Positions 1 through 64,000 are shown, counted from the first letter of the stretch. The stretch is 64,000 nt of DNA from a candidate division FCPU426 bacterium (GCA_040756875.1 JBFLYH010000002.1:1-64000); one strand, 5' to 3'. Notes: a model not told the origin generated them from the sequence alone. Translations and numbers: made by a program.

Positions 1-241
1 GGCGCGACGACAGCACCTGCGCCGCTTCCTCCGGGATCTCCAGCACTTTCCCCTCGACCTTCACCACGTTCCCGCTCCCTGGATATGCCTCGGCTTCGAA
101 CGCCCACGTCAGGTACGGGAACACGAAGGTCACCGTAACCATGAGCGAGATCGCCCGGGTAACGAGCCGCCAACTGGGCAAATGCCAGCAGCGCATGGGA
201 GATAGTTGACCTGTCCGAGGGAATGAATGAAGTCTCTGCAT
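1..241 (-). CDS. 5' fragment (runs off the window) of a probable large exported protein, paralogous to the N-terminus of 52439..60274
   Basis: Absent from the ORF track because it is truncated. My translation from the ATG at 241: MQRLHSFPRTGQLSPMRCWHLPSWRLVTRAISLMVTVTFVFPYLTWAFEAEAYPGSGNVVKVEGKVLEIPEEAAQVLSSR..., with no stop before the edge. An AAGGAG RBS lies upstream. P-x-x-x-WAF...Y...IP-x-E-x-AQ matches the 2611-aa protein. Confidence 0.8.
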   Translation of the reverse strand, partial: MQRLHSFPRTGQLSPMRCWHLPSWRLVTRAISLMVTVTFVFPYLTWAFEAEAYPGSGNVVKVEGKVLEIPEEAAQVLSSR

Positions 242-18011: not shown

Positions 18012-18046
18012 AATGGAGGCATACTCACCAGACCGGGAAGGAGCTC

Positions 18047-19633: not shown

Positions 19634-19645
19634 AACAGACGTATA

Positions 19646-40563: not shown

Positions 40564-40601
40564 GTCCGCTCGCAAATAACGCTCCTTGGCCAGGCTCGGC
40601 T

Positions 40602-41036: not shown

Positions 41037-41037
41037 G

Positions 41038-45437: not shown

Positions 45438-45445
45438 GACCAGGC

Positions 45446-46378: not shown

Positions 46379-46800
46379 TCGGATATTTTGTCGGAAAGCG
46401 CGTCGAGCAGGCGGGTTAAATGCACCAAATCTTTGAGCCGGCCCTTTTTCGGTTTGAGTTTCAACTCTTGGATTTTTTTGAGCATGGCGGCCAGGCGCTT
46501 GGTGGCCGGCAGCGTGGATTCAGGCGCCTGACCCCGGCTGCCTCCCAGCATCTGAATCAAGTGCATCAGATGCGCATCCTGTTTCAGCGTCAACTGCTGG
46601 GTAATCTCCTTCAGTTCCGCCCGCAGGTTGTTCAGTTCCTGAATCAGGGAGGCCTTGGCCTGTTCCCGGCGTTCCTGGCGCAGCTGCTTCTTGGCGGCTT
46701 TTTTCCGGAACTGCCCGCCTTTCTTTTCAGCTCCACCGTTTTCCTTGCTTTCTTCCCCTTCAACTGCGATCCATGTCATTTCCCGCACCTCCTCCGACAT
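46375..46800 (-). CDS. small basic coiled-coil hypothetical protein
   Basis: Its stop overlaps the CHAD start (ATGA); helical and Lys-rich; start uncertain. Confidence 0.6.
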   Translation of the reverse strand: MSEEVREMTWIAVEGEESKENGGAEKKGGQFRKKAAKKQLRQERREQAKASLIQELNNLRAELKEITQQLTLKQDAHLMHLIQMLGGSRGQAPESTLPATKRLAAMLKKIQELKLKPKKGRLKDLVHLTRLLDALSDKISE

Positions 46801-48189: not shown

Positions 48190-49735
48190 GGTATTCCAAT
48201 CGGACCGGGTATCCGAACAGATCGGTAAACAACCGTGCCTTGCGCTTTAGCGACCAGACTTCGAGGGGTCTGATCCGCCGCCCTTCCAGGCTCAGCACCA
48301 GCGCGTTTTTTTCGATTCGGGCGGCTGCGGCGCGCACATTTTGCGTGTGGTCGCGGTCCAGCGCGTCTGCCAGGCGCAGCAACGAGGCGAGCACCGCAAC
48401 CCGCCGCTGGTCGTCCGAAGAAAGCCGGGCGAAATGCTCGTGCCGCAGTTGGGGATGACTCTTGCGGTGGTAGCGGGCCACATTGGCGATCATCAGCATG
48501 TCGCTCTCGGTGCACCCGGGCAGTTCGGACTGCAGCACCAGGTACAGGGAGTGCTTGTGGTGCTTTTTTAAGCTGACAAAGCCGCCCACATCGTGCAGCA
48601 GGCTCGCGGCCATCAGCAGCCGCCCGTCGTCGCGCCGCAACTGGTGCAGGCTGCGCAATTGTTCGAAGATCGACATGGCCAGACGCGTCACCTGCCGGCA
48701 ATGGGCTTCGTCAATGCGGTAATGCCGGCCCAAGGCCAGGGCCGCACGAAACAATTCCTGCTCCCGCTCCTGGTCGTGCCGCTCGTCCGGAAACAGACGG
48801 GCAACGACGTCCAGCAGCAAGCCTTCCTTGGTGCCCCAGTCGCTGACTAAAATCTGGCGTTTGCCGCCCAGCCGGCCGATGCGGTCGTGGACCAATGCGG
48901 CCGGCAGAATCACATCCGCCCGGTCGGGCCGAAGTCCCAGCGTGCGGATGCGTTGTTCAACCGTGAGCCGGGCCAGGCGCCGGGTGATGGCCCCGAGCGC
49001 GTTCAGCCTCAGCACGCGCATGCCTGGGCGCAGCTGGGGTGCGCCGGCCAGCCGGGCCAAGACTTCGCTGTTGCCTCCGGTGGCCACAATGCCGGCCAGC
49101 GGCCGGGAGGCTTTGGTCAGCGCGGTGCGCAGGGGCTTGAGGTAATCCTTCACCAGGCGCTGCAGGTTTTGCGGCGGCTGGTGCGGCGCGCCAAGCTCGG
49201 CCAGTAGGCGCACCGTGCCCAGGGTGTGCGATTCGCTCCAGTGAATTCTGTCTTGGTCCGCCAGGCACAGTTCCAGGCTGCCGCCGCCTAAATTCATGAC
49301 CAGCCAGGGTTTGCTGCCCAGGGGCTGCAGCTGCCTGACGGCTCGCACCACCAACCGGGCTTCTTCCGAACCTGAAACCACGTCCACAGCCAGCTTCAGC
49401 CGCTCCTCGGCCAGACGCAGAAAATCGCGCCGGTTTTTGCTTTCGCGCACCGCGCTGGTGGCGATGGCGCGGTAATGGGTGATTTGCAGCGCTTGCAATC
49501 GGCGGCGGAAAAAAGCCAGGGCCCGAAGCGACGCAGCCAGGGCTTTGGGGTCCAGCCGCCCGTCCCGGAACACACTGGCACCTAGGCGCACTGGAACCCG
49601 CTTGCTTTCGAGCACCTGAAAGCGGGTCGGCGACGAGAATTCGGCGGCAATAAAACGCATGGCATTGGAACCGATGTCAATCCCCGCGGCGCGCAGCGGA
49701 AACCAGGGATGCAGCGGCGCAGACAGGGCAGTCAT
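48167..49735 (-). CDS. ppx: Ppx/GppA exopolyphosphatase with a C-terminal HD domain
   Basis: IDIGSNA, ATSAVRES, GSEEA, GGGSLE, RADVI, LLHDVG, HHKHS, RLADALD. Confidence 0.9.
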   Translation of the reverse strand: MTALSAPLHPWFPLRAAGIDIGSNAMRFIAAEFSSPTRFQVLESKRVPVRLGASVFRDGRLDPKALAASLRALAFFRRRLQALQITHYRAIATSAVRESKNRRDFLRLAEERLKLAVDVVSGSEEARLVVRAVRQLQPLGSKPWLVMNLGGGSLELCLADQDRIHWSESHTLGTVRLLAELGAPHQPPQNLQRLVKDYLKPLRTALTKASRPLAGIVATGGNSEVLARLAGAPQLRPGMRVLRLNALGAITRRLARLTVEQRIRTLGLRPDRADVILPAALVHDRIGRLGGKRQILVSDWGTKEGLLLDVVARLFPDERHDQEREQELFRAALALGRHYRIDEAHCRQVTRLAMSIFEQLRSLHQLRRDDGRLLMAASLLHDVGGFVSLKKHHKHSLYLVLQSELPGCTESDMLMIANVARYHRKSHPQLRHEHFARLSSDDQRRVAVLASLLRLADALDRDHTQNVRAAAARIEKNALVLSLEGRRIRPLEVWSLKRKARLFTDLFGYPVRLEYLGRPIHG

Positions 49736-49820
49736 GGGACGATTCCTGGGTTCACGTCATTCAAAGAGGTCATGGGGGTGGAGTCTAGACCAGAAAGGTT
49801 GCCGCCTGATGCGGAAATGA

Positions 49821-52295
49821 TTAAGAATGTGTGAGCCGTCCGCCGGCCGCCCCCGCCAGTTCCGATTCACGCTCCAGCTGCGAACGCACGGCAGCGGCTG
49901 TTGGCGTCGGCTCCGCTCCAGCGCCGAACGCGCCGCCCAGCAAACCGCCCAGGACATCTTCAGGGCAATAACGGTCTAAAACTTCCCGGCGGGCGCGCTG
50001 CCTCATTCGCAGGTACCGTTCCGGCTGCAGTTTGCGCCAGGCCAGCACCTCCAGAAGCGCCTGCTCCCAGGCGGCTGTTTGTCCGGCCGGGACCACCAGC
50101 CCGGTTTCCTGATGCCGGACGATTTCCTGCGGCCCGCCCTGGTTCGAGACCACGGCCGGCAACCCGCAGGCTTGGGCTTCCAGCACAACCATACCGAAGG
50201 TATCGGTCGTGCTGGGAAAAACCAGAACATCGGCCGCGCTGTAGGTCCAGGGTAATTCTTCCCGCGGCTGTCTTCCGAGAAACCGCACACCCGGCCACGA
50301 AGCGGTTTTGGCCTGCATTTCTTCTTTATACGGCCCATCGCCGACAATGAGCAGGTTGAGGCGCTGGTCCTGCCCCATCAGGCGGCGGTAGAGCCCCAGC
50401 ATAAAATCCATATTTTTATCCTGCGACAATCGTCCCACATATAAAAGCAGCGGCGCCTCAGGGAACGTCAGGCGGGACTTCAGGCGCTGACGGGCATCGG
50501 GCCGGGGGCTGAACAACCCGGTGTCCAAGCCTTTGCGGTAATGAACCAGCTTGCTGGCGTCGTATCCCCGGTCCCGCAAAATGCGCAGGTAGTTCTGCGA
50601 GGACACTTTAATCTGCCCGCACGCCTGGTAAAACCAGCGGATATAATTTTCCACGAACCGGCCGAGGTCTTCGTCCAGGCTGAGGGAATGGATTTGGGCG
50701 GAGAAATCGGTGTGATAGACGCCAATGCAGGGTATGTTCAGAAGGCGGCCGGCCAGCAACCCCACCAAACCGACCGGCCCGGGTGTCGAGACGATGATCT
50801 CTTCCGGATCGGCCCGGTAAATCAAGTCAATCGCCTTCAGCAGCGACGGTATCCGCAAACTGACTTTTTCGTAGTACGGCAGCTTCATTTCGCGGATGTA
50901 CGGAAGCGCCAGCACGATGGGCGGCAGCTGGCCGGATTGTTCCTGCCGCGTGTCCACGGCCGCCGCGATCTGGAGCGGCAGCCGCTGCTGGTGCGCCAGC
51001 CAGGCCGTCTGCTTGATGGTCTCGGCCACGCCGTTGAGATCGCTGTGTGTGTCGGTGAACCACAGAATCCGTTTGGGGGCTTTTGGCGCGTTTGGAAACA
51101 AGGATTGCTTCAGCTCACCGATCAGCGGACGGCCTTGAAACATGTGCCCGACGCTGGTAAAAAACGGAGCCGATAAAAATAAGCCGGGGATCAGCGAGGA
51201 CAGATCCTTGATCAGTTCGATGGCGTCCAGGTGGCGCAGGCTTTTTTCCAGCGATTCGAACAAGGTTCGAAAAAAGGCATCGGCCAGTTCGGCCAGTTGC
51301 TCGTACACCACCCGGAGCTTATCCTCGATATCCCGGTGCGCGTCGCGCCGGATCCGTTCCACCAGGTCCAGCAGGGCTTTTTGGATTTTGTCCTGCCGGG
51401 CTCCGTTTTTCCAAGCCTTCAGCCGCAATCGGTCCGCCAGAGGCATTTGTCGGCTGTGAAACAGCAGCTCGTTCAATTGATGGACGAGCGAGCGGGACAG
51501 TCCCGTGGATTTTTCCCTCGAAAAATCGTAGGCGATTTTATAGATGGCGAAAGTGAACCCCTGATAATTGTTGTGCCGGCCGCCCGGAACCGTCAGCTTG
51601 TTCTTGAGTTGCTGTAAAAACTCCTCGGGTGTCGACGCGCCGGCTTGCGTATAGGTCCGTCCCACAAACAAACCCGCGTGGTCGTCGCTGCCCCCGATGA
51701 TACCCTTGACCCAGGGGTCCCGGCTGGTGGGCTCGATGCCGTGCCGACGGGCCAGGTCCTCGGTCTGCCGGGGGGTGATCTGGCGGAGTATGTCCATCCA
51801 CCCCAGGTTGCTCATTTTATCGCGGCTGCCGTTGATGCCCTCAAAAACGTCAAACAGCAGAAGCAATTTCTCCAGGTGTTCGCGCCGCAGGCGGTCGTTT
51901 ACGGAATAGGTTGCATGCGCCACCGCGTGGGCCAGGTCGCGCGCCTTGAGATAATCGCGGAGCTCATAGATGCTGCCGCGCCGCCGCTCGATCTCGGCGA
52001 AATCCTTTTCGTCCAACCCGTATATCAGCACGTGGACTTTGCAGCCGTCTTCCGGGAAATAGGCCGTAGCCTCCATGCCCGTAAAGACTTCACCGGGATA
52101 TTTCGCCTGCAGCCGCATAACGCCGTCAATGCGGTTGTGATCCGTGAGCGTGACAAAACGCATGCCATTGGCCTTGGCCAGGCGAAAAACCTCTTCGGGC
52201 TCGGAGTACGATTCGTTGGCTCCGAGCTTTTTCAAGAACCATTCCGACGCATGCCGGGAATATTTAGAGTGCACATGTAAATCCGCTCGGGCCAT
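49821..52295 (-). CDS. PHP-domain / GT4 glycosyltransferase fusion
   Basis: DLHVHS, TDHN, AHA, GGSDDH (PHP); NGVA, YHTDF, VGRLSQDKN, DTFGMVVLEAQACGLP (GT-B/GT4). Confidence 0.9.
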   Translation of the reverse strand: MARADLHVHSKYSRHASEWFLKKLGANESYSEPEEVFRLAKANGMRFVTLTDHNRIDGVMRLQAKYPGEVFTGMEATAYFPEDGCKVHVLIYGLDEKDFAEIERRRGSIYELRDYLKARDLAHAVAHATYSVNDRLRREHLEKLLLLFDVFEGINGSRDKMSNLGWMDILRQITPRQTEDLARRHGIEPTSRDPWVKGIIGGSDDHAGLFVGRTYTQAGASTPEEFLQQLKNKLTVPGGRHNNYQGFTFAIYKIAYDFSREKSTGLSRSLVHQLNELLFHSRQMPLADRLRLKAWKNGARQDKIQKALLDLVERIRRDAHRDIEDKLRVVYEQLAELADAFFRTLFESLEKSLRHLDAIELIKDLSSLIPGLFLSAPFFTSVGHMFQGRPLIGELKQSLFPNAPKAPKRILWFTDTHSDLNGVAETIKQTAWLAHQQRLPLQIAAAVDTRQEQSGQLPPIVLALPYIREMKLPYYEKVSLRIPSLLKAIDLIYRADPEEIIVSTPGPVGLVGLLAGRLLNIPCIGVYHTDFSAQIHSLSLDEDLGRFVENYIRWFYQACGQIKVSSQNYLRILRDRGYDASKLVHYRKGLDTGLFSPRPDARQRLKSRLTFPEAPLLLYVGRLSQDKNMDFMLGLYRRLMGQDQRLNLLIVGDGPYKEEMQAKTASWPGVRFLGRQPREELPWTYSAADVLVFPSTTDTFGMVVLEAQACGLPAVVSNQGGPQEIVRHQETGLVVPAGQTAAWEQALLEVLAWRKLQPERYLRMRQRARREVLDRYCPEDVLGGLLGGAFGAGAEPTPTAAAVRSQLERESELAGAAGGRLTHS

Positions 52296-52438
52296 GGAAC
52301 CCTCCTCGGGCATCTTTTGCATGCCGCAACCGGCCCAGCATATACCAGGTTCAGCCGCCGCGGGTTATGGCGAGGATAATTCCGGGTTAGATTATGGTTT
52401 GGAAGTTATGTCCGGCAGCGGCCGGGCTGCCGGCGGAT

Positions 52439-55400
52439 TTAAGCGGCTTGGCCGGCCAGGCGGAAATACCGGCGCCGCAGAGGTTCCAAAGGGTTGAGAT
52501 CAAGCTGTATTGGCAGGGCCCGGACCCGGTCAAGCAACGCTCCCAGCAAGCCGGACTGCCCGGGTTTGAGCAGCAGTTCCGGCACCAAAAGAGCTAACCC
52601 GGTGCTTTCGGCAATCTCGGGTTCCCACTTTCCGATCGGTGTGCCGCGAAGCAACGGCATTTGTTCGACCAGGCGGCTGAAGGTGCGCAAGGCTTCCTCC
52701 TGCTCCCTGGGTTGTTTCAGGTTCGTAACCACCCTGACCAAGCTGCGAACCAGGGTTTGAAGCTGGATTTCATTCTGCTGAAGGGTGAAACGCAGGTACG
52801 CCTGGCCGAGGGGGCTGTCGGGTTTTTGCAGGAGTGCGGCCAGCGGGGAATGGTCGCCGCGTAAAACAGCGGCCAGGTAGGCTTCCGGAGATCGCGCCAG
52901 CCACATCTGGTCCAACGCCCACTGCCAGGACTTCGGCCAGCGCCGGCTGAGGCGGAATACGGCGGCGGAAAACAGCCAGCGGCCGCCTGCGGGCGCGCCG
53001 ACCCGCTCCGGTTTCCCCCCCTGATACGGCCTGCTCTGCGTTTCCTCGGGCACGCGCCCAATGGCCAGGTCTTCGGCGGCCACCTGCCTTGCGCTGCTGA
53101 CTTCCAGAACCTGGCGCACAGGCAGGAGCACGCCCGATTTTTCATGCCACTCCAGCCGGCCGGTGGCCACGCCCAGACAGATCCTGCCCAAGTCGCTGGC
53201 TAGGGGCAGGGTGTGCACGGCTTCGTCCTGCATCAGAAATCCGCTCTGCAACCACAGCGACTGGCCGAGTGCGGCATCCAAACGCGCCAAGCTGCCGGGA
53301 GCCGCGGTTTCGGCGCCGGCCAACGCCCGCTCGATTTCCTGCCAGCGTTTACACAGCGCCCGCACCGGCCGCGTGGCACGCAGTGCGCTCAGTGCCTGCA
53401 GGCGCGCCTGGGACTGCATCCGCAGGCGGCGGATGGTTTCCGGCATCGCATACACGTACACTTCGCGCACAAACTCTTCTTCGGTTCGGGTCACCTGCGC
53501 CCGCACGGCCGGCGCCTGGGCCTGGATCAGGGCGGCCATGAGATCGCGGCGCACCCAGCCTTGCTCGGTTTGCGGCAGCTGGTCGGCTTCTCGAATGGCG
53601 GTGGCCACCAAGGCCGTGCGGACGTCCCACGGCTCGTCCGCATTCCCCAGTACGCCGGCCAGCGTGGTGAAGTTCGGCTCGGCGCCCGCCTCCACCTGCC
53701 GCGCCAACGCTTCCACCCAGGCATCGCTTCCCTGCCCGGCGGACGTTGGCCCGGCCAGGAGGACCCTGCTTTCGGATTCCAATTGATCTACGAGTCGCAG
53801 CAGGTCGAAAACGCTCAGGCACACCCGCTTGCCGGCCGCGCGCCAAGCCAGGGAGGCCGGTTCTCCGGCGTGCAGGTCGACCAGCAGGCGGGTCCGCGGC
53901 ACACCGGCTTGGGCCCAGGTCCAGTCCCCGGGTTCAAGCCTGGGCCACTCGCGGTCCTGCTGGTAATAATCGTGAGCATGATACTCCAGAATAAGCCCGA
54001 GCAAAAAACGTTTGGCCATAAACGCCAGCCTTCGCCAGCGACGATTGAGGCTGTCATCGTCGGCAGGCATGCCATTCAGCAGACTGCGCAGTAGCGCAGC
54101 GGGCACATACAGCGTGGGACGGCCGTTTTCACCCTGCTCGCGGTAGCGCCCAAAAAACGCCGGCAATCTGCGGCCTTCGGATTCGAGCGCCCGCACCTGG
54201 ATGGATTGCAGGCGCAGGCCTGTGTGCCGGGCGAACAAGCGCAAAGCCATCGGATCAGGCAGCTGATACTGTCTGAGAAGATCGGCCACTTCGGGCCGCC
54301 GTTCCGGCAGTTCTTCACCGTCGAAGCGCGGAACCGGGCGGCTGGCGATCCAGAGCCAGACGGCGCCCCGCCACAAGCGCAGGGGCAGCTGGAAGAAAAA
54401 GCCGGCCAGTTGCCAGGGTTGCTTCAGTCTGGCGGGCGCTTGGGCCTCGGGCAGGCGGTCGAACAACGTGGCGAGCATGAACCAGCGCCAGGCTCGCGCC
54501 AGCCGGCTGCGGGAGGGTGCAACCGGCTGGTTGGCGCCGGGGTCGTCCTGCGCTGCGTGCGCCTGCCAGGCCTGCAAGGCTTGGGCTTCAGCCTGCGCCT
54601 CCCGGGTATTGGCCGGGGGACGTTGGGCTGCGCTTTCCACAGGCGCCTGCTGTTCGGCCAAACCAGCGGCCAGCGGCCACCCGGCCGGACGGGTGGCCAG
54701 CAGGGCTTCGCGGTACAGACGCAAAGAAAGCGGCGCGCCGCCTTCCCGGCGCAACTGAATGTAAACCGCGGCCTGTTCGATCCGTTCGGCCGGATGCCGC
54801 ATGATCAGGGGATGCGCCTCCAAACCATAGCGCCGCAATATGCGAACCTTGGCGCGCGGGCTGTTGTCCGTCTGCAGCCTGGTTTTTTCCACCCCTGACC
54901 GGCCCTGCCAGGGCAGGGTCAGAAGCATGAACGTCACCTCCCACAGCCAGGCCATTCCGGCCCATGGCTGCCGCGGCTGCCAGGCTTCCAGCGGCGTGGC
55001 CGGCGGCCGGAAAAACAGCGGACGCACGGGAAACCACACACGCTGCCAGCGGGTCCGCGGCTGGACAATGCGCGGGCCTGCCTGGCCGGCGTGATAGCTT
55101 TCAATAATGTCTTCGACCTCTTCTTCCTCGGTCGCCGGCATGAGGCCGGTTTCAGCAGGCACCTGCCGGGTCAGGTTCAGGGCTTCGCGGTAGAGTTTGA
55201 CGGTTTCAAGCTCGCCCATCTTAACGCGCTGGTAAATATACTTGGCCGCGGTTTCGAGCTTGGCGCGGCTGGTGCGGAACAGAAAGGGATGGGGGATCAG
55301 CCCGTACTTCAGCAGCACCACGACTTTTTCGTTGACCTGGTCCCAGCGTCCGTTGAATTCGCGCACATAAGTTCCTGGGCGGATGGGAAAACGGACGCCG

Positions 55401-58400
55401 TAACGGCGTTCCAATACCTGCCGCAGGTATTCCGCCCGTTTTCCGGGATCCTGGGCCGCGCTGTGCAGTTCGAATTCCAGCGCCACGTCAGCCTCGCGCC
55501 GGTTGCCGGCCTCCAGTATCCGCTTGCCGATGAGGGCCAGGGTTTGGGGATCGGCCGCCGTGACTTCAGCCACCAGGTGTTGCACGCGTTCAAGCGGCAG
55601 ACCGGCCTGAATCAGCGCCTCGCGAAAGATCATAGCAGCCACGGTGCGGTTGCTGAGCAGGTTGAACATGCGGCGGCGGAAATAGATCTCCTGGTCCAGG
55701 GAAAACACCCCTCCCTCGAGCAGGCTGGACATCCAGGTGGGTTGGCTTTTCTTGGGAACCAGAATGACGCGGCTGGCTTGGCAGACTTTGCGCAGCCGCT
55801 CCCAATCCACGACTTCGTCCGGTTTAAGATAATGATCGAGGTTTTTAATGTACCGGTTGAGAGTTTCCTGCAGGACGTGCAGCCGGTCAGGCGCCGCCTC
55901 GGACACCTGGCTGACTTTATCCTGGTCTTTCAGCACGCTGGAAAAGCCGAGCAGCGAATACATGAAGCTGACGAAAATGACCAGCTCCTGCAGGTGCGAC
56001 CGTAAAAAAGACAGGGCAGCTTGCAATTCAATGACTCGGGTGGAAACGAACGCCGGCAGCAGACCCGGCCATATCGCGTGCACGCTGGACAAGGCAAAGG
56101 CCAGGGACATGGAAAACACCACCAATGCGGCGGGCAGCAGGCTGGCCAGAATAATGACCTTGACCTGCTGGCTGATTTTGGGGTTTTTCGCCATCTGCAG
56201 CCATTGTCCCAGCATAAAGGCCAGCAACACGGTTTGGCCGGCCAGCATGACCGGCAGGGGCAGCGAAAGATAGAAACTGAGTAATAGCATGCTGGACAAC
56301 ATAAATACAAACAAGATCTGGCGCAGGGGTTGGCCCCGGCCAAAGCTGTCGCGCACGCGCTGGCGGAAAGGTTTGGGGCCTTGGGTGCGGGCGGGCCGCT
56401 TGTTCAGCTGCAGTTCCTTGCGTTTAATGCGATGGAGCCATTCGAGTAAATGCAAAAAGAACTGGGCAAACGAAAGCACACCCACGACTTTTTTCAACAT
56501 GCGCAGAGAAATGGTGGTGCTGTTGCTGGCCAGCACGCTGCTGCCGAAGAAGAGCACGAAGAAAAAACTGGTGGGAAATTTACACACCTCAATCAGCACG
56601 ACCGCGCACACGATGCGCAGGGCCTTGGAAACGACGCCATCCAGCCATTCGGTCTTGTTTTTCAGTTTCAACAAACGCAGGCCGATGATCACCAGAAAGC
56701 CTCCGGCCAGGGCAAAGAGCATGACCGCGTTGAAGTTGACCGTGTAGCCCAGCACGGTGCTGTAGTCAAGCAGGCGCGCCAGGATCATCAGCGCGACAGC
56801 CAGCATGGCGGCCAGCGGGGTTTGCTGTTTGGTCAGGCGGTACTCCTTGAGATTCTTCACCAGGGCCGATTTTTGCGCTTTCCATTCCTCCCGCAAGCCG
56901 CCGACCACCTCGTACCACGACAGCAACCGGCGCTGGCGGAGCAGCGCGGTGGCGTAGTTGGAGACAAACGTGAACAGGCCCAGGGCCAGCAGTACGCCGG
57001 CCAAGGCGCCCAGGGTCCAAGCCCAGGTCGGCGGCGCGGGTGACAGGTGCAGCAGGATAGGAACCAGACCCACAGCGAGTTTGATGTCCCCCAACAGTTC
57101 GCCGTAGATGGGCCAGAGCGTAAACCGGCTCTGTCTGCGCTTGGCGATCTGGTCCCGCAGAAACTTCAAGGACGGTTCCTCGGGCGCCGGGCCGGCCCGG
57201 ATCGGCGCAGGCCGCCCATTTAAATAGGAAGCAATCAGCAGCAGGCCGGCCAAGCCGGCGCTGGTGCCCCAGGAAACCAGCGGCGAAATACCCAGACTGA
57301 GCGGCAAAGCGGGCTGGAGCACGCCCACGGCTATCACCGCGCCCGCGGCAACCAGGAACACGGCGCCGCGCAGCGGGCTGACCCGGCTGGTCAGTGTGGA
57401 CCAGTTGCCGCTTGCCGCGGCTGCAGCTTTGCCGGCAACAGTGCTTCCCCACAGATAGAGCCGGATTTGGCGATCATGGACCTGCGCCTGCCAGCGGGTC
57501 CAGGCCTGACCCATGCGTTCAGCCAGACGGAAGCGCTTTCCGGTTTCGGTCCCACGCTGGCGCCACCAAGACCAGGCGAGCCATGCGGCCACAGCTGCCA
57601 GCAGCACCCAAATGCCAATGCCGGCAGCTGGCTGAAGCGCGGGATCGGAAAACCAGGTTTGCCAACCCTCGGTCATTGCCCCTGGCTGGGCGGCAGCTGC
57701 TGCGCCTGGGTCCACTGTCGGCGCAAGGATCGAAGGATCTGGCGTTTGGGGCGCTACCGGCTCTGCTGCCGTTTGCGCAATTGGTTCCGGCGCTATTTCC
57801 ACCAGCTGCCCGTGAATCGGCGTTGTCCCGGTTTGCTGGGGATCGAAATCCACCTTCAGCGTAGTGCCGTAGGCGCTGGGTTCCCCAGCCGGGTTGAACG
57901 AGTGATAGCGGATTTTATTCGGATCCGCCAGTTGGTTGGCCGCCGCAAGTTTGGCAACACCTTCGGGCGCCGGCAAGTTGGGATAAAGGTGTTTGGCCAG
58001 CGCCCACAGGGTGTCGCCCTTGCCTACGTAATACAGCCCTTCGGCGGCGTGTGCAATGCCCTGCAAAGCCAGCGATCCCAGCGACCCGGCCAGCAGAACG
58101 GGCAGAACCCGCAATACGATTCGAACGCCCCGGCGCAGCCAGCGGCGCCACGCCGGATGGTTAGCCGCCGCTTCCGCGGCCGGCGCCGGACCCCGCCGGA
58201 GTCTGGAAGCCAGTCCGTCAAGCGCGCCCAAGGAGATAAAATACGCGTGCAGACTGATATCGCGCGCCTTGGACCGCACAAGGTCCGCGCGTTTGGCCGC
58301 GCCCTGCCACAGCGGCAGGAGGGGCAGCCGGTTAAAATTGACAAAAGGGATCATGCCGGCCAGCAATGCAAAACTCGGCACTGCGCCCATGCCCACGGGG

Positions 58401-60274
58401 ATAAACCCCTGCAGCAACGGCACCGGCAGCGCGACGCGGCCGAACAGGCCGGGCTGGGTTTCCTGCAGCCGGGCTTCGACCGTGCGTCGTTGGTCCAGCG
58501 GATGGAAACTGACCTCGAAGTCATCCAAGACCAGGGGTTCGGCCAGAGCTTGGGGCAGCTTGACCGCTCGGCGCAGAGGTTGCAGCACCGCGATAAATTG
58601 ACGGCCGGCCAAGGGCAGCACCAACGTTTGGCCGATGGTGCGGGCTTGCTTCATATCGAATCGGATTAGCCCGCTGTCTGCGGCGTACCGGCGCAATTCG
58701 GCGTCCAGAGCAGCCGCCATTTTCCGGACCGAGCCGGTCTTGGCCCACAAACGCTGTACCGAGCCTAATTTAAGGACCATTTCCAGCATCTGGTAGGCTT
58801 GGCGCGTTTCCTCCGGCAGGTCGTTTTCCTGCAGAATGGCTTCCGGCTCGGCATGCTGCGCAAAAAAAGGCGGCAGGGCCAACTGCATTTGGTTGCGGGC
58901 CACCAACCGCTCCCAGGGCGTCTGGCGACGGCGCAGCAGGCTGAGGTAGGGGTTGTACACCACCGCTTCGCTCATGCGCGGCCGCACGGAGATATAACCA
59001 GCGCCCGCGTCTTCCAGCGCTTCACAAATCAGCGCGGTATGATAGCCGCCGCTGATGATCACCGCCAACGGGGACCGGTGGCGTTCGAGCGCTTCCAAGG
59101 CGCGGCGCACAAAGGTGCGGCTCCGCTGATCGGCCTTCCGGTAGAATTCCAGGGCTTCCAGACGCTTTGCATCCAGCGCCGGCAGGTCGCCGGTGGGTTC
59201 CAATTGCAAGCCCGAGGCCAGGGGTTGCAAAAAATCCAAAAACCGTCCGATTGCCAACTGCTCCGGATGGGCGCGCACTTCGTTTAATTCTTCGGGCGTC
59301 AAAGCGATGTTCAGCAACCCTTCGAGCAAATCGAGGCGGTGGAGCATGCCGTCAAGTTCGGCTTGCAAAGGCTGGGTATAGAGCTCGCGGCGTAAAACCA
59401 GGTCTATGACCTGCATTTCCCGGTACAGGTTTTCGGCTTCCACCTCCGGAGGAAATTCGGCTTGTGAAGATCGTGTGTAGCAAAGCAGGTTGGGATACCC
59501 GGCCAAATCCAGCGACCCTTGTGCAAACCCCAGCAGCTGGCGGCAATACTGTTTGAGCGAAATCTGCCCGTTTTGCGTCGCGGTTTTCAAATCGTCCAGT
59601 TTCAGCAGCGGCAGCGAGTACAAGCGCGGCTTGAGGCTTTCCAGGGCTTGACGCAGATCGCACAAGAGCCCCTCGCTTTCGTCGGTTAAAAAACGGAGCG
59701 CCAGCTCGTGCGATGCGCGGTATTCGCCGTCTTCTTCCATGCCCTCCAGAATCACTTGCCCGGGATGCTGGGCCGCGAAATATTCCGCGCCGGACAGGCG
59801 TCCGCTTCTCAGCAGCAGCTCGGCGGCCAGCTGCCTGACATGCGGATCCGGAAAACTGGAGAGCTTGGTCACATTGACCGGCAAATGAGCGCCTTCGATC
59901 AGCACCAGGCTTACGGCCCGAGTGCGCGCCAAGTGCGACAGCAGCTCGGCGATGTTTTTCTGGATGGGATAGTGACAGTGAAGGTCCTGAATATGAATGA
60001 TACGCACGGGCAGACGGCGGTCGGAAACGTGGGTGGCCTGGGCCAGCTCCCGTGGAATGTCAAACCCACCGGGCTTGAAGGCGGCAGCGGCTGAAGCCGG
60101 GGCGTAGGTATCAGGCGCAAACGCCCACCCAAACAACGGATTGATCAGCGCCAGGTTCAGTATAAAGACTAAAACCCGGATCGCGCCCGCATGCCTGGGC
60201 TCGCGCCAGACGCGCAGCCACTGTAATCGCGTTGACAAGGATTTGTCGCATCCCGGCCGCTGAAAGATATTCAT
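52439..60274 (-). CDS. 2611-aa modular membrane protein: exported N-terminal IQDLH/EGA/GGYHT domain, LysM, multi-TM block, tandem repeats, family C-terminal domain ending GQAA
   Basis: Long ORF with an AAGGGG RBS. LysM-like YYVGKGDTLWALAK...AAANQLADPNKI and many TM segments. N-terminal similarity to 1..241 and C-terminal similarity to 60453..64000 are visible by eye. Confidence 0.85.
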   Translation of the reverse strand: MNIFQRPGCDKSLSTRLQWLRVWREPRHAGAIRVLVFILNLALINPLFGWAFAPDTYAPASAAAAFKPGGFDIPRELAQATHVSDRRLPVRIIHIQDLHCHYPIQKNIAELLSHLARTRAVSLVLIEGAHLPVNVTKLSSFPDPHVRQLAAELLLRSGRLSGAEYFAAQHPGQVILEGMEEDGEYRASHELALRFLTDESEGLLCDLRQALESLKPRLYSLPLLKLDDLKTATQNGQISLKQYCRQLLGFAQGSLDLAGYPNLLCYTRSSQAEFPPEVEAENLYREMQVIDLVLRRELYTQPLQAELDGMLHRLDLLEGLLNIALTPEELNEVRAHPEQLAIGRFLDFLQPLASGLQLEPTGDLPALDAKRLEALEFYRKADQRSRTFVRRALEALERHRSPLAVIISGGYHTALICEALEDAGAGYISVRPRMSEAVVYNPYLSLLRRRQTPWERLVARNQMQLALPPFFAQHAEPEAILQENDLPEETRQAYQMLEMVLKLGSVQRLWAKTGSVRKMAAALDAELRRYAADSGLIRFDMKQARTIGQTLVLPLAGRQFIAVLQPLRRAVKLPQALAEPLVLDDFEVSFHPLDQRRTVEARLQETQPGLFGRVALPVPLLQGFIPVGMGAVPSFALLAGMIPFVNFNRLPLLPLWQGAAKRADLVRSKARDISLHAYFISLGALDGLASRLRRGPAPAAEAAANHPAWRRWLRRGVRIVLRVLPVLLAGSLGSLALQGIAHAAEGLYYVGKGDTLWALAKHLYPNLPAPEGVAKLAAANQLADPNKIRYHSFNPAGEPSAYGTTLKVDFDPQQTGTTPIHGQLVEIAPEPIAQTAAEPVAPQTPDPSILAPTVDPGAAAAAQPGAMTEGWQTWFSDPALQPAAGIGIWVLLAAVAAWLAWSWWRQRGTETGKRFRLAERMGQAWTRWQAQVHDRQIRLYLWGSTVAGKAAAAASGNWSTLTSRVSPLRGAVFLVAAGAVIAVGVLQPALPLSLGISPLVSWGTSAGLAGLLLIASYLNGRPAPIRAGPAPEEPSLKFLRDQIAKRRQSRFTLWPIYGELLGDIKLAVGLVPILLHLSPAPPTWAWTLGALAGVLLALGLFTFVSNYATALLRQRRLLSWYEVVGGLREEWKAQKSALVKNLKEYRLTKQQTPLAAMLAVALMILARLLDYSTVLGYTVNFNAVMLFALAGGFLVIIGLRLLKLKNKTEWLDGVVSKALRIVCAVVLIEVCKFPTSFFFVLFFGSSVLASNSTTISLRMLKKVVGVLSFAQFFLHLLEWLHRIKRKELQLNKRPARTQGPKPFRQRVRDSFGRGQPLRQILFVFMLSSMLLLSFYLSLPLPVMLAGQTVLLAFMLGQWLQMAKNPKISQQVKVIILASLLPAALVVFSMSLAFALSSVHAIWPGLLPAFVSTRVIELQAALSFLRSHLQELVIFVSFMYSLLGFSSVLKDQDKVSQVSEAAPDRLHVLQETLNRYIKNLDHYLKPDEVVDWERLRKVCQASRVILVPKKSQPTWMSSLLEGGVFSLDQEIYFRRRMFNLLSNRTVAAMIFREALIQAGLPLERVQHLVAEVTAADPQTLALIGKRILEAGNRREADVALEFELHSAAQDPGKRAEYLRQVLERRYGVRFPIRPGTYVREFNGRWDQVNEKVVVLLKYGLIPHPFLFRTSRAKLETAAKYIYQRVKMGELETVKLYREALNLTRQVPAETGLMPATEEEEVEDIIESYHAGQAGPRIVQPRTRWQRVWFPVRPLFFRPPATPLEAWQPRQPWAGMAWLWEVTFMLLTLPWQGRSGVEKTRLQTDNSPRAKVRILRRYGLEAHPLIMRHPAERIEQAAVYIQLRREGGAPLSLRLYREALLATRPAGWPLAAGLAEQQAPVESAAQRPPANTREAQAEAQALQAWQAHAAQDDPGANQPVAPSRSRLARAWRWFMLATLFDRLPEAQAPARLKQPWQLAGFFFQLPLRLWRGAVWLWIASRPVPRFDGEELPERRPEVADLLRQYQLPDPMALRLFARHTGLRLQSIQVRALESEGRRLPAFFGRYREQGENGRPTLYVPAALLRSLLNGMPADDDSLNRRWRRLAFMAKRFLLGLILEYHAHDYYQQDREWPRLEPGDWTWAQAGVPRTRLLVDLHAGEPASLAWRAAGKRVCLSVFDLLRLVDQLESESRVLLAGPTSAGQGSDAWVEALARQVEAGAEPNFTTLAGVLGNADEPWDVRTALVATAIREADQLPQTEQGWVRRDLMAALIQAQAPAVRAQVTRTEEEFVREVYVYAMPETIRRLRMQSQARLQALSALRATRPVRALCKRWQEIERALAGAETAAPGSLARLDAALGQSLWLQSGFLMQDEAVHTLPLASDLGRICLGVATGRLEWHEKSGVLLPVRQVLEVSSARQVAAEDLAIGRVPEETQSRPYQGGKPERVGAPAGGRWLFSAAVFRLSRRWPKSWQWALDQMWLARSPEAYLAAVLRGDHSPLAALLQKPDSPLGQAYLRFTLQQNEIQLQTLVRSLVRVVTNLKQPREQEEALRTFSRLVEQMPLLRGTPIGKWEPEIAESTGLALLVPELLLKPGQSGLLGALLDRVRALPIQLDLNPLEPLRRRYFRLAGQAA

Positions 60275-60452
60275 GAACGCTCATTCCCCTTATGGCTTGA
60301 CTGCCGGGCCAAGCATAGCCAAAAAGGGTTAATGGCGCGTGCGGTTTCTATTGATTCTCGATTAGAAGTGGGTTAAAGGAAAGCGGCCACAAACCAACCG
60401 GGAGGCAACACTGCCGCAGCCGGCGCTTGGGTGCAAAAAATCACTCAGGCAG

Positions 60453-63400
60453 CTAGGCCGCGCTGCCGGGCGTGCGGCGCAGGCGGCGCAGCTCGGGACG
60501 GAATTTCCGTTCGTCCAGGGTGACCGGCGCCAGCCGCAGTCTTTCCTGCAAAGCCAGCCACAGGGACCGGTACCCGGGCGCCAGGAACAGTCCGGGCACG
60601 AGCACAGGCCGTCCATCCTGCCGGAGGCCGATGCGCTCGCCCGCCAGCTCGGGCATGCGGGCCAGGCGCTCCAGCGTGTTCAGTCCGGCGTCCAGCGCTT
60701 CCGCCGGCTGCGCTTGCAGCAGTTCCACGAGCGTTTCCAACAGGCGGTATTGGGTTTCCGGCGTCGGCGCCAGCGCAAAGAACCGATAGGCCCGGCCGGC
60801 GTCCGCCTCCCGGTCCCGCAGGGCCTGCGCCAGGGGCGAAGTGTCCTCGGCCAGCAGTTCGTTCAAATACGCTTCGGGCTGCGATCGGCGCAGGCTCCGG
60901 TGAATGCGAAGGTTCAGACCCGCAGGCAGACGAACGGCCAGTTTCAGGAGGTTGCGCAGCACCGGCAGATCGGCGGCTGCCGCGTCGCCGCGCCCAAAAC
61001 CACGGAGCAGCGCCGCCAGCAACAAGTCCATTCTGCCCCGTTCCTGCTGGTCCGCGCCGGCCTGGCTGACCACCACGTCCAGCCAGTATTGATAAGCGCG
61101 GTAGCGTCCGAGTTGCCAGGCATCCCGCATGGTGTTCACTTCCTCCGGCGGCCCCTGCATGAGGTTGCGCAGCAGGAATTCCGGAGCCGCGACCACGGAC
61201 CGGTTCCCCCGCTCGACCAGGCCGCCCAGCCAGCGCCGGCTTACAGGCAAACTGCGGCGGTTCGCGGCGTCCAGCGCGCGCACGGGCAAAGGCTGCAGCC
61301 GCAGACGCTGCGCTCCGGCCAGGCGCAGGGTCGTGTCGTCAGGCAGTCCGTGGCGCCGCAGCAGGGCCTGCACGGCGGGGTGCGCGGCATCCACTTCCAA
61401 ACCGGATTCTGCCCGCGTCCCGGCGATCAGCCAGGCCAAGCCCCGGGCCAGACCCATCCCTGCGGCCAGCAGGCTGACCGCGGCAGCCACGGGCGTCAAG
61501 CGCGCCGGGAACATCAGGCGGCGGAAGAACGAGACCAGCAGGCGGCTCCCGGCCGAAAGGCGCGGGGTCAGCGGCTGGTTGGGCGCTTCCACCCAGGCGC
61601 GTTCAGCCTGCACGGAGGCAATGGCCTCGGGAACCGGACCGGGCAATTCCCTGCCCAGCCCCAGCGGGAAGGCGTTCGGCGACACGTCGTCCTCCTGGCC
61701 TGCGGCGCGCCTGGCGGCGGAGACGGGCTGGATTGTCCCCGTGCGGCCGAACCAGCGCGATCCGTACTCAGCCAGGGACGCCCGCCAGTGGCTGCCGGTG
61801 TAACCTTCCCATATTTCGTGCCGCAGCAGCAGCGCGAGCTCAGGCAGGCTGAGGGCATTGGCTTGGGGATGCACGCGGACCACCAGGTCCCCGCCCACGC
61901 GCTGGACCTGGCCGAGAAGCAGGCGCTGCCAAAAGCGGGGCCTGGCGTCCGGCAAGACTTCGAACCGGATGCGTTCGGGCGCAAAACCCGCGGGCAGACC
62001 GCCCTGGCGCTCCAGATAGGCCAGCAGCGATTCCCGCCGGGCCGCGAGCGCTTCGTTGGTCAGCGGAGGCAGCTTTGAACCAAGCACGCGCCGCCGCATC
62101 AGAAGCCGCGGCAATTGTACGCCGACCAATGCCAGTCCGGAGACCGCGCCGGCCAGGCTCAGCGTGGTCAGGGCCGGGTCTTGCAGCAACGCGAAACCGA
62201 AGAACAGGCCGGCCAGGGCGGCGCCCAGGGCCTGGAGCAGGACCGCGCCGGGCGACACGGCCAGCGCGCCGGGGCGTTCGGGCTGCAGGATTTCCCGGGT
62301 GGAGAACATGTCAAACAAAGCCTGGTTGCCGAGCGGGGCGCTGACCCGGCTGGCAATGCGCAGGGTGTTTACCCAGCGGAAATCATACCGGGGCAGGCCG
62401 TCATTGGCCAGGGTCAGCAGTTCGTGCTCCAAGGCGGTCAACTGCGGCCGGCTGGCGCGCCGCATCTGGGCCGCGTTCACGAAATCCGCCACGGAAATGG
62501 CCCGGCTCACGCCGGACAGGGCGGTGCGGCGCAACCCGCGGGGATACCCGCGGCCATTGAGCCATTCGTGGTGATTGGTGCTTTGCAGGATCTCCGGCTT
62601 GTAGCCGAACGCCGAGAGCAGCATTTCGCCCAGACGCGCATGGCTGCGGAGCAGCGACTTTTCTTCCGGACTCAGGGGATCCAGGCGCAGGAGCAAGGCC
62701 GGCGGCAGGAGCAGCTTGCCCGCGTCGTGCAGCCAGCCGCCGCGGCGGAACAACTCGACCGCCGCCGGGCCGTACGCCGGGGCCCGGTTGACCAGCCCGT
62801 ACACCGCCGCCATTTCCGCGGCCAGGTTCCCCACTTCCCACGAATGGCTGAAGGTGAAACCCTGATCATGCCGGTACAGCAGCGTGAGCAGCACCCAGTC
62901 CCAGAACGCAGGCCGCAGCCCCGCGGGCATGGCTTTCAAATCCTCGCTGTCCACTTTCCGGACCAGTTCCCGCATTTCAACGACCATCCGCCGCACCCGA
63001 TTCTGCAAGCGGCCGGACCAGTTGGCTTCCATTTCCTGCGGCGCGCGGATATCGTCGAGCGAGGCCTGGTGCTTCACCAAAATCTTTTCCACGTCCGCGA
63101 TGATCTCCATGCGCCTGGGCAGGGAGACCAGGCGGCTGGCGGACACCAGTTGCTGGTAGGAGGTGCTGTCTTCGCCGGCGCGCGCGGCCAAGGGGCGCCA
63201 GGTGCGGATCCAGGCGGCCAGGGCCAGACGGATGCCCTGGAACGGACGGGCCAGGCGGTTGCGCACCTCGGAGGCCATCCAGGCTTCAATGACCGCTTCG
63301 GGATTCGAGTCCGCGTTGGGATCCACGAAGTACCGGTAGCCGTGGGGCTGGTCCTTGGCGTCGCCCAGGAACAAGCCGTCCTCGGGAACCAGCTGGTTTT

Positions 63401-64000
63401 TATTGTCCGCGATCAGGGGCTGCAGGTCGTCCTCGATGACCTCGCCGGTAAACACGCCGCGGGTGTTGAAAACCAGGCGGTTGCCCCTGACCTCGGATAC
63501 CACGACGCCGCGCGTCTCCAGGGTCCGGTTGATTTCTCCCCGGTTGAAGAACATCTGCAGCGATTGCTCGCTGCTACGGCTGCGCACGGCCACCTGGATG
63601 TCCTTGGCGCCGGTCGCGACCCGCAGCCGGTCCGTCAACTCCAGGAAACGCCCGTTAAGCTGCCAGGATGCGGCCTGGCGCCGCAGATGTCCGAGCGTCA
63701 GGCGGTCTTTGAGCACCGCCAGATAATTGCGGTACGCAGGGGCGGAAACCTCGGCGTCGAACCGCTGCCGGGCCTGGTTGTACGCCGTGGTGAACGTTTC
63801 GCGTTCCTCCGGATTGCGGATGGACACGGCGGCAATGTCGCGCAGGCTGAAGCCTTGCTCGGACCGGGGCAAGGTGATGGTTTCGTTGAAATCCGCGTAA
63901 ATCGTGATCGGCTGGCCGGCGTGGAGCAGCCGGAAAGCCAGCTTGAGCGCCCCGCGCCGCACCCGCCTTCCCCACTCACGCCAGTCCAGGGCCCGGTTGC
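60453..64000 (-). CDS. 3' part of another large modular protein (5'-truncated by the window): HAD-like, HD-GYP, TMs, HExxE motif, family C-terminal domain ending GSAA
   Basis: The frame stays open past the GTG at 63962 to the edge (NRALDWREWGRR). Motifs: YADFNETIT...FLGD; HSWEV, LHDAGK, HHEWLNGRGYP, VADF; RHEIWE...H. Confidence 0.85.
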   Translation of the reverse strand, partial: NRALDWREWGRRVRRGALKLAFRLLHAGQPITIYADFNETITLPRSEQGFSLRDIAAVSIRNPEERETFTTAYNQARQRFDAEVSAPAYRNYLAVLKDRLTLGHLRRQAASWQLNGRFLELTDRLRVATGAKDIQVAVRSRSSEQSLQMFFNRGEINRTLETRGVVVSEVRGNRLVFNTRGVFTGEVIEDDLQPLIADNKNQLVPEDGLFLGDAKDQPHGYRYFVDPNADSNPEAVIEAWMASEVRNRLARPFQGIRLALAAWIRTWRPLAARAGEDSTSYQQLVSASRLVSLPRRMEIIADVEKILVKHQASLDDIRAPQEMEANWSGRLQNRVRRMVVEMRELVRKVDSEDLKAMPAGLRPAFWDWVLLTLLYRHDQGFTFSHSWEVGNLAAEMAAVYGLVNRAPAYGPAAVELFRRGGWLHDAGKLLLPPALLLRLDPLSPEEKSLLRSHARLGEMLLSAFGYKPEILQSTNHHEWLNGRGYPRGLRRTALSGVSRAISVADFVNAAQMRRASRPQLTALEHELLTLANDGLPRYDFRWVNTLRIASRVSAPLGNQALFDMFSTREILQPERPGALAVSPGAVLLQALGAALAGLFFGFALLQDPALTTLSLAGAVSGLALVGVQLPRLLMRRRVLGSKLPPLTNEALAARRESLLAYLERQGGLPAGFAPERIRFEVLPDARPRFWQRLLLGQVQRVGGDLVVRVHPQANALSLPELALLLRHEIWEGYTGSHWRASLAEYGSRWFGRTGTIQPVSAARRAAGQEDDVSPNAFPLGLGRELPGPVPEAIASVQAERAWVEAPNQPLTPRLSAGSRLLVSFFRRLMFPARLTPVAAAVSLLAAGMGLARGLAWLIAGTRAESGLEVDAAHPAVQALLRRHGLPDDTTLRLAGAQRLRLQPLPVRALDAANRRSLPVSRRWLGGLVERGNRSVVAAPEFLLRNLMQGPPEEVNTMRDAWQLGRYRAYQYWLDVVVSQAGADQQERGRMDLLLAALLRGFGRGDAAAADLPVLRNLLKLAVRLPAGLNLRIHRSLRRSQPEAYLNELLAEDTSPLAQALRDREADAGRAYRFFALAPTPETQYRLLETLVELLQAQPAEALDAGLNTLERLARMPELAGERIGLRQDGRPVLVPGLFLAPGYRSLWLALQERLRLAPVTLDERKFRPELRRLRRTPGSAA

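Follow-up and report, generated by a model that had tools for sequence, protein, structure and literature searches.

The window analysed here is the first 64 kb of contig C2 in the genome (3.22 Mb, 7 contigs, ~60% G+C) of a candidate division FCPU426 bacterium. It carries members of a family of very large proteins that share a conserved N-terminal domain (the head) and a short basic tail ending in Ala-Ala, and that differ in what lies between. The head weakly resembles hydrolases of the erythromycin esterase (Ere)/Tiki superfamily. The reading that we favour, with a slightly better than even chance of being right, is that these proteins are giant inner-membrane scaffolds whose periplasmic Ere/Tiki-like head docks the periplasmic tail as substrate or pseudo-substrate.

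Two members, A and B, lie in tandem on the minus strand, and a third is cut by the contig start. A is open reading frame (ORF) P0001 and the part of B inside the window is P0002. Their features, given with lengths in amino acids (aa) and with the evidence used, including searches with hidden Markov models (HMMs), are as follows.

52439..60274 (-): member A, P0001, complete, 2,611 aa (ORF, BLASTP, HMM, hydropathy)
60116..60274 (-): A residues 1-53, N-terminal basic stretch and hydrophobic segment (at residue 36), ending P..GWA followed directly by FA (paralog alignment)
58805..60100 (-): A residues ~59-490, conserved N-domain with a weakly supported Ere/Tiki-like fold (HMM, alignments, model)
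57908..58033 (-): A residues 748-789, LysM-like segment, just under the cut-off (Pfam)
55919..57622 (-): A residues ~885-1452, polytopic membrane block with ~10 hydrophobic segments (Kyte-Doolittle scan and sequence reading)
54344..55327 (-): A residues 1650-1778 against 1811-1977, internal repeats of ~130 aa (30.5% identity, E 1e-4)
52442..54322 (-): A residues ~1985-2611, C-module, made up of block 1, an insert of ~320 aa and block 2 (BLASTP, HMM, model)
52442..52480 (-): A residues 2599-2611, tail at the extreme C-terminus, LRRRYFRLAGQAA-COOH, with a predicted place in the pocket of the N-domain (complex model)
60453..64000 (-): member B, 3' end, last 1,181 codons and stop; the gene extends to C2:97733
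62424..62855 (-): B, HD-GYP-type HD domain, P0002 residues 382-525 (Pfam and motif HHEWLNGRGYP)
61032..61643 (-): B, short-form C-module block 1, P0002 786-989, with a membrane helix ahead (BLASTP)
60456..60950 (-): B, block 2 and tail, P0002 1017-1181, ending RRLRRTPGSAA-COOH (BLASTP)
2..241 (-): third member, first 80 codons up to the contig start, covering the signal sequence and the beginning of the N-domain (HMM E 2.3e-16)

From its N- to its C-terminus member A consists of a signal sequence, the N-domain, the LysM-like segment, the polytopic membrane block, the internal repeats, the C-module and the Ala-Ala tail. The weak LysM match (E 4e-4) scores 20.7 bits, with the cut-off at 20.9. 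On the whole contig B is an ORF of 12,426 aa (C2:60453-97733), which the window edge cuts to the frame 60453..63998 (-). Its N-terminus, beyond the window, matches the ~480-aa domain of A with 36% identity over 502 aa (E 2e-92).

An earlier note on this DNA had claimed that the two tandem ORFs share two homologous blocks near their C-termini, and the similarity is significant. In BLASTP of the window translations, block 1 (A 1887-2108, B 786-989) is 32% identical with E 1e-12, and block 2 (A 2439-2611, B 1017-1181) is 34% identical with E 3e-13. The blocks are collinear in A and B, and no further significant segment was found between the two translations (next best E 0.54). Their homology stands; their separateness does not, as together they form one C-module of ~740 aa with an optional insert of ~320 aa. 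The third member that the note placed at position 241 is confirmed by the 80-aa N-terminus listed above. Its calls for the middle domains fared unevenly: HD-GYP in B is well supported (HD/HD_5, E 2.5e-13 in Pfam, with the GYP signature read in the translation), LysM in A only weakly, and HAD and HExxE in B have no Pfam match at E <= 0.01. Signals in a promoter and terminator scan of 52200-60700 were at chance level.

In the genome as a whole, an HMM search found the N-domain in 11 ORFs, at the very start of 9 full-length ones and in 2 pieces cut at contig ends. Identity in this domain among paralogs is 29-40% (BLASTP, and an HMM from the first ~490 aa of A). The eight complete members measure 2,611, 12,426, 10,037, 8,793, 12,520, 6,130, 1,256 and 2,236 aa; three of them reach at least 10,000 aa and none exceeds 30,000 aa. 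The ninth N-domain ORF is a 1,136-aa fragment. Two tandem pairs occur, on C2 (12.4k then 2.6k aa) and C3 (6.1k then 2.2k aa), and on C7 the end of one member is followed by the start of a new one. Contigs C4-C7 consist almost wholly of single giant open frames or fragments of such genes. The C4 and C6 fragments share their stopping point and have 79% identity in the final 627 aa, which indicates that the assembly breaks inside the family; the copy number, about 10-11, is therefore a minimum. The summed lengths of the 8 complete genes and the fragments come to ~205 kb, or 6.4% of the genome.

Each paralog aligns with other paralogs over just 8-51% of its length, mostly at the ends. Hydrophobic segments, often paired, number 4-42 per member in a Kyte-Doolittle scan and occur along the whole length. 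Pfam scans, which covered all members apart from the final 3,506 aa of the C4 fragment, gave the following content.

A (2,611 aa): weak LysM only
12.4k member: NTP_transferase with ManC beta-helix, DnaJ, CheR, carbohydrate phosphorylase, HD/HD_5
8.8k member: PPDK_N, PEP-utilizers, Metallophos, TreT/GT1, phosphorylase, HATPase_c
10.0k member: GNAT, aldose epimerase, methyltransferase, HAD
6.1k member: two cytidylate-kinase segments
C6 fragment: GH99, GH130
C4 fragment: PGM/PMM
12.5k, 2.2k and 1.26k members and C7 fragment: none

The recurrence of the N-domain in 11 ORFs, the limited alignment and the varying Pfam content bear out the idea, already in the earlier note, that the paralogs form a class whose ends are fixed and whose middles differ and are not collinear.

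The family extends well beyond this genome. A profile search of 1.84 billion representatives returned 9,525 proteins at E <= 1e-3, of which 5,806 reach E <= 1e-30. Among the 150 listed representatives, 408 to 7,768 aa long, the N-domain lies within the first ~560 residues in all and within the first ~500 in 149. Within the window's order the domain occurs in 15 of 15 genomes, in 7 to at least 15 copies per genome, and the frames that it opens reach 13,678 aa. The paralog profile has no match at E <= 1e-5 in the 84 other genomes of the phylum sample. The closest matching records are labelled Firestonebacteria, Goldiibacteriota and FCPU426, and remoter matches (25-30% identity) carry the labels Omnitrophota, Endomicrobium/Endomicrobiales and 'Planctomycetia'. 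In Omnitrophota-labelled genomes N-domain homologues open ORFs of 2,000-7,861 aa. A search for homologues of near-equal length found just 2 partial hypothetical proteins. That the giant ORFs are artefacts of assembly or annotation was rejected: the frames are open without stops and are conserved in 15 of 15 genomes of the order.

All members start with a basic stretch, a hydrophobic segment and a conserved P..(T/G)WA followed directly by F(E/A). P46, A51 and F52 (A numbering) are invariant across the nine paralogs in the N-terminal alignment. We infer from these features that the segment is a signal peptide or signal anchor. The signature residues of the N-domain that follows are, in A, D97-x-H99-C100, E127, R384 and G409-G410-x-H412. 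Conservation was counted in the 150 listed public representatives, which were found by profile and not selected by motif: D97, H99 and C100 are each conserved in 148, and E127, R384, H412, F377 and Y378 in all 150. An alignment in which QDLHC is invariant was left out of this count, as its loci had been picked by that pattern. In the ESM Atlas the N-domain matches only an unnamed 'hypothetical protein' cluster.

An AlphaFold2 (AF2) model of the N-domain, built from an alignment of 56 sequences, has a predicted local distance difference test score (pLDDT) of 88.3 and a predicted TM-score (pTM) of 0.86, and contains a helical insert of ~220 residues. Among its PDB fold matches in Foldseek, ranks 1-5 are Bcr135 and EreC, ChaN is at rank 23 and HopBA1 at rank 27. 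In the available part of the RRSP structure paper, Bcr135, ChaN and HopBA1 are TIKI-superfamily proteins, the Ere family (including EreC) is given the same active-site architecture and proposed mechanism, and the superfamily active site is described as two His and two Glu (2His/2Glu) with a conserved basic residue (PMC6254334). The same text names His-85/Glu-113 in Bcr135 and Glu-3900, His-3902, Glu-3930 and His-4030 in RRSP, which has E-x-H (PMC6254334). A set of the 2His/2Glu type is present in the head, namely D97-L98-H99, E127 (+28) and H412, with Asp and not Glu as the first acid. The candidate basic residue, R384, is kept in 150 of 150 representatives but lies outside the interface list of the complex model described below. 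Since D97-x-H99, E127 at +28, R384 and H412 fit the published description (PMC6254334), the head is probably a divergent Ere/Tiki-superfamily hydrolase domain with a large helical insert.

At the other end, the eight complete members terminate in QAA, SAA, QAA, QAA, TAA, SAA, AAA and, once, QAI, with a basic stretch ahead. Ala-Ala-COOH after a basic stretch is thus found in 7 of 8, and the C7 fragment ends VAA. Genome-wide, 58 of 2,676 stop-to-stop ORFs of at least 300 aa end in AA. The ending recurs in other genomes: 68 of the 150 listed representatives end AA and 18 end SA; among the 20 N-domain ORFs of two further genomes of the order, 11 end AA and another 4 SA, and the one of these genomes that belongs to another family, G022, has AA in 8 of 9. 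Giant N-domain ORFs end AA in 4 of 5 cases in an Endomicrobium-labelled genome and in 2 of 3 in an Omnitrophota-labelled one. Stand-alone heads of 531-570 aa have no AA end. Of the 11 ORFs or fragments 5 carry the C-module, which is also found at the C7 end; member B has the short form, without the insert, and each of the 15 genomes of the order has both forms. At the C-terminus, what the family shares most widely is the short basic tail ending Ala-Ala, not the C-module. The module gave an AF2 model with pLDDT 81.6, which has no credible counterpart among PDB folds (best probability 0.16), and its sequence has no significant match in Pfam, NCBIfam or a PDB profile search and nothing usable in the ESM Atlas.

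Two further ORFs of this genome (G000) resemble parts of the family. A 281-aa ORF at C1:187304-188146 (+) carries a block-2-like segment (E 2.4e-6 to 4e-6) and ends WFDSAV. A 6,963-aa ORF at C2:1078294-1099182 (+) has a similar basic and hydrophobic N-terminus and ends KLKTTGSAA, with an acidic low-complexity region where the N-domain would sit; it may be a headless Ala-Ala-tailed protein and a possible substrate in trans.

Both ends are predicted to be periplasmic from signal sequence, hydropathy and charge. Summed over 15 homologues, the helix that precedes the C-module is flanked by 31 K+R and 5 D+E on its N-side and by 17 K+R and 44 D+E on its C-side. Under the positive-inside rule this bias would place the C-module and the tail outside the cytoplasm, and the head, which follows a signal sequence, is expected outside too. 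The LysM-like segment of A follows a second signal-like helix, and its position is consistent with an outside loop.

Because the two ends are conserved together and predicted to share one compartment, a complex between them was modelled. The inputs, unpaired, were the head (A 59-489, 56-row alignment) and block 2 with the tail (A 2439-2611, 20-row alignment). Head and tail gave an interface score (ipSAE) of 0.69 (runs 0.61, 0.69 and 0.73), against 0.00 for the best of 3 controls. The mark set for this score is reached by 58 of 80 solved complexes and by 2 of 110 mismatched pairs, and serves as a rough guide here since the alignments were our own. The runs have 50% or more of their contacts in common, with a partner pLDDT of 75 or higher. 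Confidently modelled contacts join Q96-H99, F377/Y378/A381 and G409-T413 of the head to the last 13 residues, LRRRYFRLAGQAA, and head residues 197-210 (the conserved ES.G..DL region) to the tail motif PGQSGLLGALLD. Invariant catalytic-type residues of the head are therefore the ones predicted to meet the conserved tail end. Since there is no solved structure of a related complex, the modelled docking does not reproduce a known one.

Head and tail also occur as neighbouring genes. At two Omnitrophota-labelled loci, L152:6882-10544 (G101) and L153:6710-12655 (G100), a stand-alone N-domain gene (531 or 536 aa) is separated by 4 nt from a downstream gene of 689 or 1,445 aa that ends IAA. This looks like a split form of the head-tail pair and a hint of gene fission. 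The loci look orthologous and so count as about one case. Upstream of the head gene both have an ORF of ~1,300 aa ending GG(Q/L)YRF.

In the reading that we favour, the family would be a lineage-expanded set of giant polytopic inner-membrane proteins, of 0.6 to ~13.7 thousand aa, defined by their two ends. The head would comprise a Sec-type signal sequence and a periplasmic domain of ~450 aa of the erythromycin-esterase/Tiki/ChaN superfamily, with a hydrolase-type set (Asp-x-His, Glu 28 residues on, Arg and a second His) and a family-specific invariant Cys. The tail would be a basic stretch ending small-Ala/Ser-Ala-COOH, preceded in a subset of members by the ~740-aa periplasmic C-module of no known fold. 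Between them would lie membrane hairpins and varying cytoplasm-type enzymes carried by the scaffold, mainly sugar-nucleotide and glycan enzymes, kinases, methyl- and acetyltransferases and HD/HAD hydrolases. The active-site cleft of the head would take up the tail of the same molecule (closing) or of another one (linking, processing), as substrate or pseudo-substrate. As the earlier note proposed, the ends may serve in targeting, export or processing; what the analysis found is a signal sequence, a hydrolase-like head and the predicted head-tail contact.

Several observations weigh against this reading. The superfamily assignment of the head receives no help from sequence searches: none of 9 paralogs matches Pfam at E <= 0.1 (ChaN, PF04187, reaches E 0.16 in one of the 9; TraB_PrgY_gumN and Erythro_esteras are further Pfam models of the superfamily), NCBIfam gave no significant match, and a profile search of PDB gave 0 matches at E <= 10. 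The Foldseek scores are weak as well (E 0.02-0.08, probability 0.25-0.66, TM 0.13-0.24), and that the invariant head residues cluster in space is inferred solely from their common contact with the tail. Topology was drawn from hydropathy and charge counts, and A's own pre-module helix is weakly hydrophobic (maximum Kyte-Doolittle value 0.98). The docking is one model of one paralog, from our own unpaired alignments. What is common to the tails across the family is only the last ~12 residues, and an HMM built from the tails of C-module bearers misses those of the 10,037-, 12,520-, 6,130- and 2,236-aa members at E <= 10. Of the 150 listed representatives 64 end otherwise than in AA or SA, some of them probably truncated; in G023 only 3 of 11 N-domain ORFs end AA, with 4 of 11 ending SA; and a 990-aa head form ends RRKK. 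At a third stand-alone-head locus the downstream gene ends EAV, and at a fourth no AA-ended ORF of at least 200 aa lies downstream.

These points leave room for other explanations. It is unlikely, though worth weighing, that the Ala-Ala tail is a degradation or processing tag for a separate protease while the N-domain acts elsewhere, for example on envelope or prey molecules. Candidate readers of such a tag are a periplasmic tail-specific S41 protease (Prc/CtpA type) and a cytoplasmic AAA+ protease for ends of the ssrA type; ClpX and Tsp are known to recognise C-termini that are non-polar or that combine basic residues with Ala. The genome has a transfer-messenger RNA (tmRNA) gene (G000 C1:1505058-1505409, (-)) with the tag AEPEFALAA, which resembles the Ala-Ala-COOH end, and one S41 peptidase gene (C3:344751-345242, E 7e-58); the headless 6,963-aa ORF ends GSAA too. 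The charge bias ahead of the C-module, which puts the module outside, disfavours ClpXP (as cytoplasmic tail reader) and FtsH, but not Prc/CtpA. Against a tag for any separate protease, the tail co-occurs with the N-domain under several phylum labels, the model sets it in the invariant pocket of the N-domain with controls at 0.00, and a constitutive degron would presumably be costly on proteins of at least 10,000 aa. It is rather unlikely that the ends are conserved by common ancestry alone and have independent roles, for instance a signal with a ChaN-like binding or esterase domain for the envelope and a C-module as separate anchor, the head-tail contact being a false positive. The 2 in 110 mismatched pairs that reach the ipSAE mark, the weak fold evidence, the two of four stand-alone-head loci with no AA-tailed partner nearby and the confinement of longer tail homology to a subset of members all speak for independence. 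However, the short end motif persists where the middles are no longer recognisably related, even in members that lack the C-module and under distant phylum labels, and this points to selection acting on the terminus itself; and the invariant N-domain residues are the ones that contact the tail in the model.

The delivery of toxins or effectors, in which the ends would mediate export and the swappable middles would be the cargo, as in MARTX, is very improbable. The layout of conserved ends around variable enzymatic middles and the tandem pairs on C2, C3 and C7 would suit it, and MARTX toxins do carry a TIKI-family effector, according to the part of the RRSP paper available (PMC6254334). The members are instead polytopic, with hydrophobic segments (4-42) spread over their length, and their domains are of housekeeping type (NTP_transferase, PGM/PMM, glycosyltransferases, cytidylate kinase, DnaJ, GNAT, methyltransferases). 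In the scanned members Pfam reported no RTX repeats, C80 cysteine protease or toxin families. When the ORFs lying up to 8 kb from each member were compared all against all, family members were the only neighbours to recur, and no immunity-like or secretion-system genes did; the genes around A are ordinary (GT4, Ppx/GppA and thymidylate-kinase-like genes, CHAD, a radical SAM enzyme and the dcw cluster). In polymorphic toxin systems the variable toxin domain is C-terminal and has an immunity gene beside it, whereas here it is the C-terminus that is conserved. It is for the membrane segments, the housekeeping-type domains and the ordinary neighbours that we rate toxin delivery so low, and the view of the middles as toxin- or effector-like cargo is not sustained.

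Quite improbable, to our mind, is a more specific form of the docking model, in which the head is a Cys/His-dependent enzyme that uses the family's own Ala-Ala tail as acyl donor. Its products would be giant proteins that are closed covalently from head to tail, strung together as chains or meshes, or fixed to the cell wall. Sortases and penicillin-binding transpeptidases use C-terminal signals in an analogous way. Such chemistry would be compatible with the invariant Cys (148 of 150) next to the catalytic-type His and with the modelled tail contact at that stretch, with the predicted periplasmic location of both ends and the LysM-like wall-binding segment of A, and with the finding that the sole relative observed to have Thr at the Cys position terminates in RRKK, not AA (n=1).

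Other observations concern the surroundings of the family. Downstream of A, window 44151-52322 (-) holds a GT4 glycosyltransferase gene (833 aa), Ppx/GppA, two thymidylate-kinase-like genes, CHAD and radical SAM; Ppx/GppA and CHAD lend the region a polyphosphate-related flavour. The start of the dcw cluster lies at 35490-41931 (-), with MraW methyltransferase, an FtsI-type penicillin-binding protein with PASTA domains and two Mur ligases. The G+C content of 18001-20000 is 0.474, against 0.58-0.70 around it. An ORF of 990 aa at 2088-5060 (-) has a HAD-like start, LFDLDGVIVDT, fused to a long C-terminal part (translation reading). Elsewhere in the genome a second set of large proteins, of 1,500-3,200 aa, has common C-termini, KKKVALIK or GKIFLVR, which we take to resemble type IX secretion sorting domains; examples are C1:1403915-1413469, C1:1414806-1423499 and C2:353126-360487. 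Giant ORFs lacking the N-domain are found at C1:1007257-1030323 (7,689 aa), C2:1101430-1119828 (6,133 aa), C3:94818-108479 (4,554 aa), C2:1120118-1134622 and C5:4713-17894. They are unrelated to the ends of the family, and two pairs of them are mutually paralogous.

The giant proteins of Omnitrophota and sibling phyla are at present mainly lists of long unannotated ORFs without a common handle. The family described here offers one, in a compact conserved N-domain (9,525 representatives), a short encoded C-terminal motif and their predicted mutual binding. If true, head-tail binding would tell how giant proteins are closed, linked, processed or checked for completeness, and the ends would allow a family-wide catalogue of the enzyme modules between them. 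Members make up ~6% of the genome and should therefore matter to the organism.

Among known systems, MARTX is similar in giant size, conserved ends and exchangeable enzymatic middles, an analogy of layout only. The present proteins differ in having no RTX or autoprocessing C80 domain by Pfam, in being polytopic with housekeeping-type domains, and in having no adjacent type I secretion genes. The tail is like ssrA tags and Prc/CtpA substrates in its non-polar Ala-Ala-COOH end (compare AEPEFALAA); it differs in being genetically encoded, with a conserved basic stretch ahead, in its predicted periplasmic location and in its tie to one protein family and to the N-domain of that family. Proteins of the TIKI/Ere/ChaN/TraB-PrgY superfamily (Bcr135, 3B55; EreC, 6XCS; ChaN, 2G5G; HopBA1, 5T09; RRSP) supply the best fold matches to the head. 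Substrates in the superfamily are peptide ends, as for Tiki (the Wnt N-terminus) and PrgY (a heptapeptide), or esters. The head shares acid-x-His, the Glu 28 residues on and the second His with the superfamily as far as its active site is described in the available text, and its conserved Arg may correspond to the basic residue described there. It departs from it in the Asp that replaces Glu as first acid, in the invariant Cys after the first His, in the helical insert of ~220 residues, in having no significant Pfam match and in its fixed place at the N-terminus of giant membrane proteins.

The nearest counterparts overall are the giant proteins of Omnitrophota. Those called 'Archaeovorins' exceed 30,000 aa and have numerous transmembrane regions, by the available text of West-Roberts et al. 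(2023, bioRxiv 10.1101/2023.11.21.568195); a 'multi-enzyme metabolic cluster' class of at least 10,000 aa is described for Omnitrophota in the portion available of Nielsen and Lui (2026, bioRxiv 10.64898/2026.06.07.730766), and giant multi-enzyme membrane proteins are mentioned for sibling clades in the excerpt of a further paper (PMC12057145). Many membrane segments, a signal sequence and mostly Pfam-dark sequence are common to those proteins and ours, 3 of the 8 complete members here reach 10,000 aa while A has 2,611 aa, and PGM/PMM, GT1, methyltransferase, HATPase_c, GNAT, HAD and HD recur in the class of Nielsen and Lui as described there in part. The likeness to Omnitrophota giants that the earlier note had drawn holds, on this enzyme repertoire and on the N-domain homologues in Omnitrophota-labelled genomes. 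The Archaeovorin/multi-enzyme class is distinguished, in the same partial texts, by a divergent SecA DEAD-like domain and an N-terminal C39 or S8, of which Pfam reported none at E <= 0.001 in the scanned members; the nearest relatives of our family are labelled Firestonebacteria, Goldiibacteriota and FCPU426, and its sizes go down to ~1,250 aa. The N-domain, a Tiki/esterase-like head and the Ala-Ala tail were not found in the available text of West-Roberts et al. or of Nielsen and Lui, whose supplementary catalogues may list the proteins, and head, tail and head-tail contact were not found in literature searches on Tiki with giant proteins or on large proteins of Firestonebacteria and Goldbacteria. 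Giant multi-enzyme membrane proteins are thus already known, and the present family is a sharply defined variant of them, set apart by its head and its tail.

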